Shown here one piece after another: positions 4,944-38,208 of a DNA stretch of 39,123 nt. Location of the stretch: positions 1 through 39,123 of the forward strand of contig JAAOXY010000082.1 in assembly GCA_018221065.1 (NCBI GenBank). Reading direction: 5' to 3'. The position numbers were made by a program, and so were the translations under genes. The first letter of the stretch is position 1; each line of letters starts with the position of its first letter. The stretch comes from Candidatus Aenigmatarchaeota archaeon. GTDB lineage: Archaea > Aenigmatarchaeota > Aenigmatarchaeia > Aenigmatarchaeales > Aenigmatarchaeaceae. The notes under the pieces were generated by a model. It saw only the letters and a program-made list of their open reading frames with translations, searched no databases and was not told where the DNA came from.

Positions 4944-5651
4944 TTACCTCTTTGTTAATTTTGTCTCAGAACAATTGCTGATAACTCTTGACCCGAAACC
5001 GATACCCCAACAATTAGCCGATTTGATTATAGTATGGCCAGTGGTATGAATAGGGGGTTTGATTGATTTTACATCTTTTCTTATGCCATATACTAACGAT
5101 TCAGAAGGATCTGGATCTTCTTTGTTTATTCTGTAGAAATTATATATAGAAGTCCCCGTATATAATCCCCATTCAAGATTGGCGTTTCCACCATTATCAT
5201 CTATCATCCACAGATCACCATCATTGCTACTTGGAGGACTGCTGATAATGTAAAGTCCAGACTGAGCCATTGTAGCTAAAGTATAACCTCTTGTGAAAGA
5301 ACTTTTTCTTGTAGATTCGAAGCTTGTCAATGTAGTGTTGGCTATAGCTTGTAACAGGAAACCTCCACGGCCTATCATTATTCTATCTGATTGACTGAGG
5401 GCATCATAGTTGGTTACAACTTCGTGCATTCCTTGCTGGTCTATATCACCATCCACCAATTCTGCTGCCACATAATGACCTGCTATATGGGTTGCTGCAC
5501 TAGCGGCTGCCCCTATCAGCATCTCTCCAACATCTTCTGCTTTGACTGCTTCATTCACATCAACACCAAGAATATAAAACTTCATTGATTTTGATGATGC
5601 ACACCCACTAAATCCGAGACATAATAAAATGACACAAATAATATATTTCAT
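4944..5651 (-). CDS. putative lipoprotein (235 aa)
   Basis: ORF track. MKYIICVILLCLGFSGC signal peptide with lipobox. GGAGGGG RBS. Confidence 0.8.
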   Translation of the reverse strand: MKYIICVILLCLGFSGCASSKSMKFYILGVDVNEAVKAEDVGEMLIGAAASAATHIAGHYVAAELVDGDIDQQGMHEVVTNYDALSQSDRIMIGRGGFLLQAIANTTLTSFESTRKSSFTRGYTLATMAQSGLYIISSPPSSNDGDLWMIDDNGGNANLEWGLYTGTSIYNFYRINKEDPDPSESLVYGIRKDVKSIKPPIHTTGHTIIKSANCWGIGFGSRVISNCSETKLTKR

Positions 5652-15719: not shown

Positions 15720-16028
15720 TTATCGTAAAGTCTGTCTTTTCCATGGTTCTTTTTCTATTCGATAAATATACCAGCCTGCGGATATGAAGACCAGAGCGGT
15801 TACAGTACCACAAATGACCCAGATAGCCCATTTGATATAAACTCCTATTGTTAAGGGCTTATTTCCTTTGATATCCTCATAACTGAATATGGATGCTATA
15901 AATAATCCACAAGCAAACCAGAACATTATCACAAACGTAGTGGGTGGCCATGTGAAATAGAACAGCACAGACATTAGACTACCCCATATGACGAAGAACC
16001 AAATTGGTACGACATTATCTTGTTTCAT
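15720..16028 (-). CDS. polytopic membrane protein (102 aa)
   Basis: ORF track. Three or four hydrophobic segments. Confidence 0.7.
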   Translation of the reverse strand: MKQDNVVPIWFFVIWGSLMSVLFYFTWPPTTFVIMFWFACGLFIASIFSYEDIKGNKPLTIGVYIKWAIWVICGTVTALVFISAGWYIYRIEKEPWKRQTLR

Positions 16029-16059: not shown

Positions 16060-16302
16060 TTATACATAATTCCCTATAATATAAACAATCCCACACATGA
16101 CGGTGACTCCACAGGCAGTATACCCAAAAATGATTCCAATTACCTTTACAAACTCAGCATCAATATTCCACCACCATCTTGGCTTATAGTACTTGATGCT
16201 GCCATGTTTGCTTGAGAGATCAACCTGTACTTTTCGATTCTTCTTAATCATGATCAAAAGAATCAGAAATGCCACCGATGCAAACAATATTGGTAGATTC
16301 AT
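16060..16302 (-). CDS. membrane protein (80 aa)
   Basis: ORF track. N- and C-terminal hydrophobic segments. Confidence 0.7.
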   Translation of the reverse strand: MNLPILFASVAFLILLIMIKKNRKVQVDLSSKHGSIKYYKPRWWWNIDAEFVKVIGIIFGYTACGVTVMCGIVYIIGNYV

Positions 16303-16327: not shown

Positions 16328-16585
16328 TTAGCTCCTGCCCGATTCAAGCTCATAACCTTTTATTTCCATGCACCCCTCAAACACTTTTCTCCAGACTTCA
16401 ACTCGCTCATGATACTTGATGACCCCATCCATAGAAGCTTCATAGGCTTTGGTATTGCAGTAGTCTTTGTCAGCTTCAAACTGATTTTGGCTTTGCATCT
16501 TTAAAGGAGTAAAGAGTTTCTTGGGAGTTTGAGCACATGCTCCAAACATCAAAAACACTAGGGCTATAATCGTTAATTGTTTCAT
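16328..16585 (-). CDS. putative lipoprotein (85 aa)
   Basis: In-frame ATG 16585 with GGAGGAG RBS. MKQLTIIALVFLMFGAC signal peptide with lipobox. Confidence 0.7.
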   Translation of the reverse strand: MKQLTIIALVFLMFGACAQTPKKLFTPLKMQSQNQFEADKDYCNTKAYEASMDGVIKYHERVEVWRKVFEGCMEIKGYELESGRS

Positions 16586-16720: not shown

Positions 16721-17194
16721 TTAAGGAGTTGCTTCAATGGTTCCACCTGGCCCATGAACTTCAAACCAATGAAGCGAATTGTCATGTTTGGCGAACATGT
16801 GGTATTGATCAATGCTATGAGTAATAACGATTGTAATATCACTTGAGATATCATTTATTTCCTGACAGGATCCGGTTGAAGCATATGTTTGATAATCAGT
16901 ATAATATGCTTCCTGTGCTAGTACTGCTGTGTGAAGTGCTGACATCGCATCTGTATCAAATGCTCTCACTCGATAATATGCAAACTGAGGAATTGCAATA
17001 GCAGCAAGGGTACCAATGATGGCTATAACTATTATCAACTCGATGAGAGTGAAACCTTTTTCATCGCTTCTAATCTTTATCATCTTTTTTGGTTTTGATC
17101 TAGAACCGAATTTAAGAATCCATAACACCAAGACGACACCGATCATGATTGAGAAACTCCAGATCATAAAATCATCACTTTGTAAATAAGTCAT
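16721..17194 (-). CDS. type IV pilin-like / pseudopilin-like protein (157 aa)
   Basis: ORF track. KGFTLIELIIVIAIIGTLAAIAIPQF is the prepilin N-terminal cleavage/methylation motif. A strong GGAGG RBS serves the long form starting at 17194. An internal ATG at 17083 would give a classic short leader. Confidence 0.75.
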   Translation of the reverse strand: MTYLQSDDFMIWSFSIMIGVVLVLWILKFGSRSKPKKMIKIRSDEKGFTLIELIIVIAIIGTLAAIAIPQFAYYRVRAFDTDAMSALHTAVLAQEAYYTDYQTYASTGSCQEINDISSDITIVITHSIDQYHMFAKHDNSLHWFEVHGPGGTIEATP

Positions 17195-17229
17195 AGTATT
17201 ACCTCCTTTTAATTTAGTATATATTTCTT

Positions 17230-17394
17230 TTATTTTCTGTATTTTTTATTCATTTCTTTAACCAATGGATCAATAATTTCATCTCCCCTTTTAACGAGAT
17301 GTTTAAGTTCATCGTCTTCAATGGTTGTTTCCTTGAGAGTTTTTAACAACATCGCCAAGGTCATAAGATCGGCATCATATATAATAGAACTCAT
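17230..17394 (-). CDS. hypothetical protein (54 aa)
   Basis: In-frame ATG 17394 with AAGGAGG RBS. Promoter core 53 nt upstream. Confidence 0.6.
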   Translation of the reverse strand: MSSIIYDADLMTLAMLLKTLKETTIEDDELKHLVKRGDEIIDPLVKEMNKKYRK

Positions 17395-17446
17395 TTGAAC
17401 CTCCTTTTTTAGGTTAATAAATATATACAAATAGGTCTTTTATTTT

Positions 17447-36204: not shown

Positions 36205-36549
36205 ATGGGACCTGAAACTATTTTATATGGACTTGGTGCAATTGGTATTTTTGGGGCATTAGCTTTATTCCTCCCAAAACTATTGGGAAAATCAAAGAAA
36301 AATAAGATTCTTGACAAATTTAAAAAAGACGAAAAACAAAAAGAATTACAAGAAGAATCTGTAGTAATATCAAAAGAGCAACAAGTTATAGCTAAACAGA
36401 TAAAAGCATCAGATCATGCTTCAGAAGAAACCAAAAAGAAAATCAAAAAGAAGCTACAAAAGGCAGCAGTAGAAATTCAAAAAACATTAAAAGAAGATAA
36501 TATAGCTTCAATTGATGAACAGATTGACGAAGAGTGGAAGGATCTATAA
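36205..36549 (+). CDS. N-terminally anchored charged protein (114 aa)
   Basis: ORF track. TM segment ILYGLGAIGIFGALALFL. Confidence 0.7.
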   Translation: MGPETILYGLGAIGIFGALALFLPKLLGKSKKNKILDKFKKDEKQKELQEESVVISKEQQVIAKQIKASDHASEETKKKIKKKLQKAAVEIQKTLKEDNIASIDEQIDEEWKDL

Positions 36550-36550
36550 A

Positions 36551-37087
36551 ATGAAAAAACTAATAGCATTAATAATCATTGGATCATTTGTTTTGTTAGC
36601 TTGTGCTCCGCCACCGTTTAAACCATTTAAACCGGAGATAATTAAGTTTGAACCGTCTCCTTCATATTCAGTTACAGATCAGATTAATGCCATACCAAAA
36701 CCACAACCGCCAAAGAGAATATATGTAAAAAAGATATCTGATAAAGATTTTGAGGTTGTAGCTGCCAAAGAGGAAGCTACTCATATTATGCTGGCTCCAG
36801 CTGAATATGCTAAAGTTGGCGCATTGGTTAAGTTAACAAAAACTTATAAAGAGTTAGTTTTAGATCAAGAGGTATTAATGAATACATATATTGATCAAAT
36901 CAATGCTCTTAAAGAACTTCTTGCAATGGAACAGAGAAAGGCAGAGGTTTATAGAGAACTATGGATGAGCTCTGAAAATGCATACAGATATGAAGTTTGG
37001 GAACACAAATGGGATAACAGGATTAATAAAGCAGGCCTTTATGGAATTACAGTTGGGTCAATTATAGTATTGCTGTTACTACTCTAA
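36551..37087 (+). CDS. unimolecular spanin candidate (lipoprotein signal plus C-terminal TM)
   Basis: In-frame ATG 36551. MKKLIALIIIGSFVLLAC lipobox, a Pro-rich linker, a coiled segment, and a C-terminal LYGITVGSIIVLLLLL. Immediately upstream of the endolysin. Confidence 0.65.
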   Translation: MKKLIALIIIGSFVLLACAPPPFKPFKPEIIKFEPSPSYSVTDQINAIPKPQPPKRIYVKKISDKDFEVVAAKEEATHIMLAPAEYAKVGALVKLTKTYKELVLDQEVLMNTYIDQINALKELLAMEQRKAEVYRELWMSSENAYRYEVWEHKWDNRINKAGLYGITVGSIIVLLLLL

Positions 37088-37097
37088 GGAGAATCAT

Positions 37098-37532
37098 ATG
37101 TATAAACCAAATCATTTTGGAATTAAAGAACTAGTTCCAAAATCTTTATATAATAAATATTCAAGCAGAGGTGATAACTTTTTATTTCAAGTTATATTTG
37201 ATGAACGTCTTTTGAGGATAATTGATACGATCAGAGAAGAGTTTGGATCAATGACTGTAAACAATTGGTCATGGGGTGGACCATTTCAATATCGAGGAAT
37301 TCGACCTCCTGATTCTAATATTGGTGCTGCATTAAGTCAACATAGATTTGGAAGAGCTGTTGATATGACTCCAAAAAATATATCCCCAGATGATATGAGG
37401 AAGCAAATTATTGATGACCAAAATTCTGATAAATGGAAAGATATTGGTGGTCTTGAAATGGGTATAACATGGTTTCATGTTGATGTTAGAGCAAGAACCG
37501 ACGATAAAAAAATAAATTTGTTTTACCCATAA
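37098..37532 (+). CDS. peptidase M15-family endolysin (144 aa)
   Basis: ORF track. SQHRFGRAVD (Hx6D zinc ligands) and WFHVD. Confidence 0.85.
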   Translation: MYKPNHFGIKELVPKSLYNKYSSRGDNFLFQVIFDERLLRIIDTIREEFGSMTVNNWSWGGPFQYRGIRPPDSNIGAALSQHRFGRAVDMTPKNISPDDMRKQIIDDQNSDKWKDIGGLEMGITWFHVDVRARTDDKKINLFYP

Positions 37533-37543
37533 GGAATATTAAA

Positions 37544-37888
37544 ATGGACTGGAAAAAGTTTATAACCCCTGGAATTATTGTGGTTGTTATCATATCTCTA
37601 GTTGGAATAATCTATAATGGGCTTGCTTCTGAATTGAACGAAAAAGCAGATAATAAAACAATTCAGATGTATATTTTACAGCAGGAAAAAGATTCTGTTA
37701 GACGGGATAAGTTTTCTGAGGAACAAAAAAAAGAGAATGAACTAAAGCAGAGAGAACTTGAACTAAAGCAGAGAGAACTTGAACTAAAACAAAAAGAACT
37801 CGAAACCAAACAGTCCGGAGATGATGATAAGTTTATGATGCAACAAAAATCATTAGAACAATTAATAGAAGTATTAAAGGAGAAGTAA
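37544..37888 (+). CDS. N-terminally anchored coiled-coil protein (114 aa)
   Basis: ORF track. TM helix followed by an ELKQRELELKQRELELKQKELE repeat. Confidence 0.7.
   Translation: MDWKKFITPGIIVVVIISLVGIIYNGLASELNEKADNKTIQMYILQQEKDSVRRDKFSEEQKKENELKQRELELKQRELELKQKELETKQSGDDDKFMMQQKSLEQLIEVLKEK
37739..37801 (+). repeat. 3 x 21-nt tandem repeat (GAACTAAAGCAGAGAGAACTT)
   Basis: Units at 37739-37759, 37760-37780 and 37781-37801 (degenerate). In frame and encoding heptads. Confidence 0.8.
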
Positions 37889-38208
37889 TGGATTCAGCTT
37901 TATTTGATGCGATCAATTCTATACAATGGGCGTTACTTTTAAAGTTGGCGGTTGTTGCGGTTCTTGGCTTATATTTAAAAAAACATTTTGATAATTTTGC
38001 ATCTTATATGATGTTTAGATCAAATAAGGACCTTGGAAAAAATGTTAAAGTATTACTCGATGGGAGAGAGGGTTTCATTACTCAAGTTAGTTGGAGGTTT
38101 ATCTATGTAGAATTTCATGATAAGAGTACTGAAAGAATTATTCCTATTACTAAATGGACTTCCTTAAAATGGGAAGTCTGTAAAAATGGAAAAGATAATA
38201 AGGAGTAA
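37888..38208 (+). CDS. membrane protein (106 aa)
   Basis: ORF track. TAATG overlap. One TM helix. Confidence 0.7.
   Translation: MDSALFDAINSIQWALLLKLAVVAVLGLYLKKHFDNFASYMMFRSNKDLGKNVKVLLDGREGFITQVSWRFIYVEFHDKSTERIIPITKWTSLKWEVCKNGKDNKE

Follow-up and report, generated by a model that had tools for sequence, protein, structure and literature searches.

A PilA-type prepilin with a predicted membrane-spanning leader on an apparent phage contig binned with an archaeal genome

An open reading frame (ORF) at positions 16721-17194 (minus strand) of contig JAAOXY010000082.1 raises the question of why a pilin of bacterial type, preceded by a leader long enough to cross a membrane, should be encoded on DNA assigned to an archaeon. 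The contig is 39,123 nucleotides (nt) long, belongs to the Candidatus Aenigmatarchaeota assembly GCA_018221065.1 and was analysed at its full length, henceforth referred to as the window (contig C40); the bin to which it was assigned, 644 kb in size and 78% complete by its rating, has no longer contig. A previous inspection of the letters alone, referred to below as the sequence-only reading, had described the product as a phage-encoded type IV pilin-like protein with an atypically long leader. The reading favoured here, with moderate confidence, is that the ORF encodes a phage PilA-type IVa prepilin whose leader has acquired a conserved membrane helix, and that this prepilin would be matured and would enter the pilus of the host.

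The complete precursor gene comprises 157 codons and a stop and joins an N-terminal extension, a prepilin site and a pilin. The predicted site, G47↓F48 (the arrow marks the scissile bond), lies within EKGFTLIELIIVIAIIGTLAAIAIPQF and reads EKG↓FTLIELIIVIAIIGTLAAIAIPQF. The class III signal is canonical (EKG↓FTLIEL), with Gly at -1, Phe at +1, Glu at +5 (E52), Gly at +14 (G61) and Pro at +22 (P69). The pilin signature reported by the sequence-only reading was upheld by profile searches, in which PF07963 (N_methyl, IPR012902; 35.1 bits against a curated cut-off of 21.2) and TIGR02532 (32.6 bits against 16.3) were both matched. The likeness reaches beyond the motif over the whole mature part: 6309 proteins were matched at E<=1e-3, with 45-55% identity to the best cellular PilA proteins throughout this region. 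A chance motif is also unlikely in that no second prepilin motif occurs in the window or in the whole bin. The nearest solved relatives by sequence are Geobacter PilA-N (7tgg, E 7.4e-17), Thermus PilA4 (6xxd, residues 48-147, E 5.2e-12) and Myxococcus PilA. At the level of sequence it was thereby confirmed that the ORF encodes a PilA-type type IVa prepilin, the resemblance being full-length.

Assignment to a narrower class was less simple. None of the NCBIfam equivalog cut-offs was reached, the best scores being 52 bits for PilA_Myxo (cut-off 400) and 33.8 bits for GspG (cut-off 88.85). Since the best matches are PilA and no equivalog cut-off was reached, the protein is placed as a PilA-like type IVa pilin outside the named orthologous groups. 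A type II secretion pseudopilin was considered and rejected, because the GspG score falls below its cut-off and the best full-length matches are PilA. The protein also stands outside the type IVa major pilin (PilA) subclass, with no equivalog match and a leader of 47 residues rather than 5-10. It does carry the features by which class III signal proteins are recognized, namely Gly (or Ala) at -1 and, after it, a stretch of 20-25 residues that is mostly hydrophobic and in many cases includes Glu at +5. Class III leaders are defined as hydrophilic or neutral and cytoplasmic (PMC10191384); here the last 20 residues of the leader alone are hydrophilic. The presence in the leader of an 18-residue helix with a mean hydropathy of 2.49 thus sets the protein apart from typical class III members.

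The length of the leader depends on the start codon. A Shine-Dalgarno (SD) sequence, AAGGAGGT (17201-17208, minus strand), is separated by a 7-nt spacer from the ATG at 17194, so that the strong ribosome-binding site which the sequence-only reading had placed 47 residues ahead of the cleavage site was found as described. The same SD-ATACT-ATG layout precedes many other genes of the window. An internal ATG (17081-17083, M38) would give a leader of 10 residues and, as had also been stated, lacks an SD sequence (upstream tcaaaaccaaaaaag). No stop codon interrupts the frame between 17194 and 17083. The public gene call, P0001, is 119 residues long and starts MKIRSDEKG, at an ATA codon that follows the internal ATG; the public annotation therefore hides the extension.

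From its N-terminus the precursor can be divided into four parts, all on the minus strand. The alignments delimit an acidic tail of residues 1-9 (MTYLQSDDF, motif YLQxD[DE]F; 17168-17194), which is predicted to be periplasmic. An extra membrane helix, TM1, spans residues 10-27 (MIWSFSIMIGVVLVLWIL; 17114-17167; mean Kyte-Doolittle hydropathy as given above) and is followed by a basic loop of residues 28-47 (17054-17113), which has a net charge of +6, holds the internal ATG, ends in DEKG and is predicted to be cytoplasmic. The hydrophobic helix and basic stretch noticed earlier in the leader were thus recovered. Residues 48-157 (16724-17053) form the predicted mature pilin of 110 residues, as delimited by sequence matches in the PDB, AlphaFold2 secondary structure and invariant alignment columns. 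This part contains the alpha1 helix that carries the signal residues from F+1 to P+22, a predicted four-stranded head and a C-terminal GPGG motif; because it has a single Cys, it lacks a D-region disulfide. The AlphaFold2 model, computed with a shallow alignment, shows a helix at residues 3-32, disorder at 33-49, the alpha1 helix at 50-99 and four strands, a secondary structure that may fit the lollipop fold (a long alpha1 with a four-stranded antiparallel sheet), at a mean predicted local distance difference test (pLDDT) score of 64.7.

The charge pattern of the leader is constant among the five known copies of the extension. The N-tail has a net charge of -1 to -2 in all of them, the 18-residue TM1 has a mean hydropathy of 2.3-3.0, and the loop has a net charge of +2 to +6 and ends in an invariant [DNT]EKG. 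According to the positive-inside rule, the loop would be cytoplasmic while the N-tail and the pilin head would be periplasmic. This topology would bring the G↓F bond to the cytoplasmic face of the membrane, where the active site of prepilin peptidase lies (PMC10191384).

Relatives of the gene were found on five contigs, L002-L006, which are syntenic fragments of related viruses. The extension is kept in frame in four of these, and the corresponding proteins are 65% (P0003, L005), 56% (P0004, L002), 59% (P0005, L006, cut by the contig end) and 45% (P0007, L004) identical to that of the window. The closest pilin is P0002, at 83% identity, which is encoded on L003 (contig JAZHCI012430905.1 of assembly GCA_044343285.1). 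In a seven-sequence alignment (the window protein, P0002-P0005, P0007 and P0008), residues E45, K46, G47, F48, T49, L50, I51, E52, L53, P69, Q70 and F71 do not vary even where overall identity falls to 46%; G61 (+14) is replaced by Ser in P0003, the other positions of the signal being invariant among the relatives. The head domain is far more variable than the processing site, with 45-83% identity among relatives. Even the divergent L004, and L003, where the extension is a split ORF, retain the tail motif YLQxD[DE]F.

Selection on the extension was estimated by the Nei-Gojobori method over residues 3-31. Between the window and L002 the proportion of synonymous differences (pS) was 0.66 and that of nonsynonymous differences (pN) was 0.23, giving a nonsynonymous-to-synonymous rate ratio (dN/dS) of 0.17; between L005 and L002 dN/dS was 0.11, and comparisons with the more distant L004 gave ~0.49. 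Among the first 31 codons of the window and L002, 10 are identical, 8 differ by synonymous changes only and 13 carry mostly conservative replacements. The low dN/dS in the pairs with L002 indicates that the extension frame is translated and under selection. Additionally, L004 and L006 lack an ATG in the stretch from the helix to the cleavage site and would consequently make the long form only, and the SD sequence of the long start is conserved in L002, L003, L004 and L005. These comparisons show that translation starts at 17194 to give a predicted precursor of 157 residues whose extension is translated and under purifying selection. The long leader with its membrane helix, which the sequence-only reading had taken as the N-terminus, accordingly appears to be the real one.

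Two of the relatives indicate that extension and pilin can be separated as modules. L003 encodes the extension in an ORF of 49 codons (MEMIYLQSTNF...; 1778-1927) that has a strong SD sequence of its own, and the prepilin gene (1917-2267, called as 116 residues), which overlaps it by 11 nt, starts MKNEKG↓F; the two ORFs would be joined in one frame if a G5 run were shorter by a single G. In L002, AAGGAGGAG is followed after six bases by an ATG inside the loop, from which MTNEKG↓F could be made beside the long form. The internal start of the window is not conserved among the relatives. The extension of the window (17054-17194) is ~95% identical in DNA to that of L005 (94-231), while the extension of L003 is strongly diverged although its pilin body is the closest to that of the window (83% in amino acids). 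Such mosaic ancestry within one gene points to recombination near the conserved GATGAAAAAGGTTT (DEKGF) junction. Fused, split and internally initiated forms would all give the same products if the G↓F bond is cut, which supports cleavage indirectly.

The organism in which the precursor would act cannot be taken from the bin. The bin itself is archaeal, as its Rpo1N gave a match to archaeal RNA polymerase A' with E 6e-290 and further long ORFs, judged by eye, resemble archaeal PolB, EF-2 and MCM. The window differs from it in several respects. An SD-like motif precedes 67% of the contig's ORFs of at least 100 residues against 10% in the rest of the bin, and GGAGG occurs 2.04 times per kb against 0.47. 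GC content is similar in the two, and the tetranucleotide correlation between contig and bin is 0.959, which is low for a contig of such length.

The gene content of the window is that of a phage. An endolysin of the M15 peptidase type (37098-37532, plus strand) was matched by phrog_894 (E 7.5e-19, 69 bits) and Peptidase_M15_4 (E 1.4e-4) and shows the H-x6-D motif. It adjoins a gene for a spanin-like protein (36551-37087, plus strand). In the translation of this gene a lipoprotein signal (FVLLAC) is combined with a membrane helix at the C-terminus, as in a unimolecular spanin; the assignment is one of architecture only, with no family match. Both belong to a probable lysis cassette (36205-38208), whose first gene (36205-36549) encodes a membrane-helix protein with a charged coil and in which the endolysin gene is followed on its 3' side by one for a membrane-helix protein with a coiled coil of the repeat RELELKQ (37544-37888). 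Another small membrane protein ends the cassette. The contig also encodes a collagen-like tail fibre (phrog_5073), an ATP-dependent DNA ligase (phrog_114), an HNH endonuclease and a sugar-modification cluster. The viral origin asserted by the sequence-only reading is borne out by these genes, and the contig is almost certainly a bacteriophage that was mis-binned by its composition into an archaeal metagenome-assembled genome (MAG). No integrase family was matched in the Pfam and PHROG scans, and the phage is probably virulent.

Because the contig is mis-binned, the archaeal bin says nothing about the host, and a host assignment drawn from it would be wrong. The M15 endolysin implies that the host has murein and the spanin-like lipoprotein implies that it is double-membraned. 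We conclude that the host is a double-membraned, murein-walled, AT-rich organism with strong use of SD sequences.

In such a host, the following sequence of events can be proposed. The precursor would insert into the inner membrane as a helical hairpin, with the acidic tail (residues 1-9) outside, TM1 (residues 10-27) spanning the membrane, the basic loop (residues 28-47) in the cytoplasm, the alpha1N helix of the pilin spanning the membrane again and the 87-residue head in the periplasm. The host prepilin peptidase (PilD) would then cut EKG↓FTLIEL at the cytoplasmic face and release a mature pilin of 110 residues together with a membrane peptide of 47 residues. The mature pilin would enter the type IVa pilus machinery of the host, either co-assembling and altering the pilus surface or perturbing assembly. 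The most likely benefit would be shielding of the infected cell from pilus-dependent competitors, or remodelling of its surface, as suggested by the leftward, presumed early, location of the gene, the lipoprotein and two membrane proteins encoded alongside it, and published precedents. Once released, the leader peptide probably has a function of its own as a small membrane protein, given that its periplasmic motif is conserved and that it is encoded by a separate gene in one relative.

The precedents are found among other viral pilins. P-FimU of F10-like Pseudomonas prophages is built into pili and blocks tip-binding phages, and P-PilA is encoded in Xylella prophages and in virulent (non-temperate) phages (Cell Rep 2026, PMC12952977). 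The window pilin is like these a phage copy of a host-type pilin with an intact class III signal and ~50% identity to cellular PilA, and the role proposed for them, in which they enter the pilus of the host or disturb it and so block pilus-dependent phages, is the one proposed here by analogy. Superinfection exclusion or pilus interference, as suggested by the sequence-only reading, would agree with the published phage FimU and PilA mimics. The available portion of that report mentions no membrane helix in the leader of P-FimU or P-PilA, whereas the window pilin has a conserved membrane-spanning addition of 37 residues ahead of an ordinary-looking leader end; in further distinction from them, its gene is accompanied by conserved neighbours that encode a lipoprotein and two membrane proteins. 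As a putative member of the phage-encoded pilin mimics, it shares with them that it is encoded within a phage genome, to which the related contigs are syntenic. The SNJ2 haloarchaeal provirus offers a more distant parallel, since its viral pilins are assembled by the host machinery into surface filaments (PMC12426801), much as the use of host machinery is proposed here. Unlike the window pilin, those of SNJ2 are archaeal, belong to a temperate virus and serve as the receptor for a second virus, and the accessible text reports no membrane helix in their leaders.

Several observations weigh against the proposal that the prepilin is matured and enters the pilus. Natural prepilins whose leader contains a membrane helix are not known to be cut by PilD, so that cleavage is here an assumption. 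No prepilin peptidase and no pilus machinery could be assigned to the phage; the bin contains no A24 peptidase (Peptidase_A24), as would be expected if the contig is mis-binned. The clade consists of six contigs only, all of them metagenomic. The pLDDT of the AlphaFold2 model corresponds to modest confidence, and a Foldseek search with the model returned noise and no significant match. Finally, the frame break at the G5 run of L003 may reflect a genuine split, ribosomal or polymerase slippage at that site, or a mistake of assembly.

A more ambitious and less likely form of the same scheme treats the precursor as a two-in-one polyprotein: a single cut by the host peptidase at the cytoplasmic face would free a decoy pilin and a 47-residue bitopic peptide, the conserved YLQxD[DE]F tail of which would act on a different target in the envelope.

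Foremost among the rivals is an anchored, uncleaved subunit. According to this explanation, which we regard as rather unlikely, the extra helix prevents or slows cleavage and the pilin docks through alpha1N as a poison subunit that cannot leave the membrane; it would jam pilus assembly or titrate PilD and so remove the pilus receptor from infected cells. The membrane helix does depart from the hydrophilic leaders of class III proteins (PMC10191384), the extension is conserved and specific, and truncated phage PilA stubs have been proposed as assembly inhibitors (PMC12952977). However, G-1, F+1, E+5 and indeed the whole of EKGFTLIEL are invariant, which would be needless in a plug that is never cut, and a full and diversifying head has been retained. 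Moreover, L003 with its split genes and L002 with its internal SD sequence and ATG can make an ordinary short-leader prepilin.

It is less probable still that the extension is an insertion aid only, that is, a signal-anchor which targets the protein to the membrane and is discarded after cleavage with no function of its own. The hydrophobic helix with its consistent charge pattern would suit this purpose, and no stand-alone homologue of the extension was found. Against it, the tail motif retained in L004 and in the split ORF of L003 would be needless in a generic anchor, and cellular relatives insert well with leaders of 6-14 residues.

That the long leader is an illusion of annotation, with a short prepilin made from the internal ATG (17083) only and the upstream 37 codons untranslated or forming a separate small gene, is very improbable. 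The 119-residue public call, and the 116-residue call with a separate upstream ORF in the nearest relative, L003, speak for it; the uninterrupted frame, the strong SD sequence at 17194 and none at 17083, the purifying selection in the extension frame and the lack of an internal ATG in L004 and L006 speak against it. Least credible of all is that the gene belongs to the binned archaeon or to a virus of it and is handled by an archaeal prepilin peptidase, since the binning with an archaeal MAG at similar GC and a tetranucleotide correlation of 0.96, together with a KG↓ context that would suit archaeal peptidases too, is opposed by the murein endolysin, the disparity in SD use, the low tetranucleotide fit for such a length, the bin's lack of any other pilin or A24 peptidase, and close pilin relatives that are all bacterial PilA with E+5.

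Returning to the maturation scheme, the setting of the gene is conserved as well. The pilin gene is the second of a leftward, presumed early, operon adjoining a strand-switch region, and no terminator-like site separates it from its neighbours. It is preceded on its 5' side by a gene for a small acidic protein (17230-17430, minus strand; start probably the ATG at 17394), whose counterpart before the L002 pilin gene is 56% identical. The next gene downstream encodes a lipoprotein of 85 residues (MKQLTIIALVFLMFGAC...; 16328-16585, minus strand) that has no Pfam or PHROG match; counterparts occur in L003, L005 and L006, the Cys at the end of the signal peptide is kept, and the lipoprotein gene always follows the pilin gene directly except in L002, where other genes are inserted. 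An 80-residue protein with two membrane helices and the motif RWWWNID (16060-16302, minus strand; counterparts in L002, L003, L005 and L006) and a 102-residue polytopic membrane protein (15720-16028, minus strand; L002 counterpart 50% identical), the last conserved member of the cassette, complete the series. The order common to the relatives is a divergent SET-domain gene, the acidic gene, the pilin, the 85-residue lipoprotein, the 80-residue protein and the 102-residue protein. The sequence-only reading was right in noting lipoprotein and membrane-protein genes next to the pilin. These neighbours were also considered as a lysis cassette, a role that was rejected for them as the endolysin and spanin-like genes lie at 36.2-38.2 kb.

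The tie of the phage cassette to pili is strengthened by L002, which encodes a PilX_N protein of 333 residues (35.2 bits against a cut-off of 25.5). This protein is encoded by one of the extra genes inserted in the cassette of L002 (4743-6855); the others encode a 178-residue lipoprotein with a metalloprotease-like HEGGH (HExxH) motif and a weak Peptidase_M50B match, 30% identical to a 235-residue ORF of the window (4944-5651), and also a secreted protein of 107 residues.

A core sequence, CTATATATATTAATTA, occurs in 12 almost invariant copies on the minus strand of the window, upstream of leftward genes (positions 2499, 3468, 4476, 6595, 8560, 9798, 10168, 10748, 15367, 17447, 17526 and 18765). 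Several copies are preceded by a GC-rich hairpin and a T-run, and the strand-switch region ahead of the pilin operon contains two of the twelve. In appearance the core resembles a promoter specific to the phage. Elsewhere in the bin, outside the window, contig C68 carries an ORF of 2596 residues with N-terminal K/R-rich repeats (..AAHKGRS..SASMKGRTLSDAHRKKI) resembling the NUMOD3 type; like the window, this contig may be foreign to the bin and of viral origin.

Searches for the extension and for further relatives of the phage beyond this clade were negative. No phage record was matched by tblastn with the pilin or by megablast with 24 kb of the window, and IMG/VR, queried with the pilin, the pilin alignment, the SET protein and the SET alignment, returned three generic pilins and no relative of the phage. 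The 47-residue extension used alone as a query gave no stand-alone homologue. A metagenome scan with back-translated IGxVLVLWIL gave 120 chance matches on hydrophobic helices, none of them followed by a prepilin site. The extension is also absent from nine cellular pilin loci whose upstream frames were translated, a selection among the top 80 of those in named genomes (Zetaproteobacteria, Nitrospirae, Desulfobacterota, Solirubrobacterales and others), and from the short-leader pilins of the protein search, in which cellular leaders have 6-14 residues. The nearest cellular pilins come from MAGs of Zetaproteobacteria, Nitrospirae and Desulfobacterota. Cellular pilins for which tblastn alignments reached residues 12-24 (L030, L042 and others) were considered as carriers of the extension and rejected, the upstream sequence being untranslated or non-hydrophobic. 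Literature searches aimed at long prepilin leaders, together with a review (PMC10191384), yielded no description of a prepilin with a membrane-spanning leader.

The window pilin otherwise resembles the cellular type IVa major pilins of Geobacter, Desulfobacterota, Zetaproteobacteria and Thermus (7tgg, 2m7g, 6xxd), with which it shares the EKGFTLIEL...AIAIPQF alpha1N, a mature length of 110 residues, the lack of a D-region disulfide and 45-55% identity in the mature part. In contrast, those cellular pilins that were inspected all have short hydrophilic leaders and none has an extra helix. As far as the visible part of PDB chain 7tgg_A shows, the 29-residue leader of the long Geobacter PilA isoform contains no membrane helix, and we know of no long prepilin leader that holds one. 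Long leaders of 15-30 residues (type IVb, S. sanguinis) are described by length only (PMC10191384), as is that of the long Geobacter isoform (PMC6201914). Geobacter sulfurreducens PilA is reported to have long and short isoforms (Richter et al. 2012, summarized in PMC6201914) that arise from two in-frame starts, are both cleaved by PilD and have separate roles. The short isoform there has a 10-residue leader, like that which the internal ATG of the window would give; unlike in Geobacter, the internal start of the window has no SD sequence and differs among the relatives. Phage PilA-like proteins are already known, and the predicted membrane-spanning leader is what is new.

The locus illustrates how a phage contig inside an archaeal bin misleads host assignment. 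If the maturation scheme is true, a natural and conserved leader that crosses the membrane would widen the substrate range of prepilin peptidase, and a phage would be exploiting a protease of its host for the maturation of a phage membrane protein. The forms of the gene found in the relatives, whether fused, split or internally initiated, constitute natural controls for experiments. The protein would, moreover, contribute a new design to the phage pilin mimics used in phage-phage competition, of which a small but increasing number is known.

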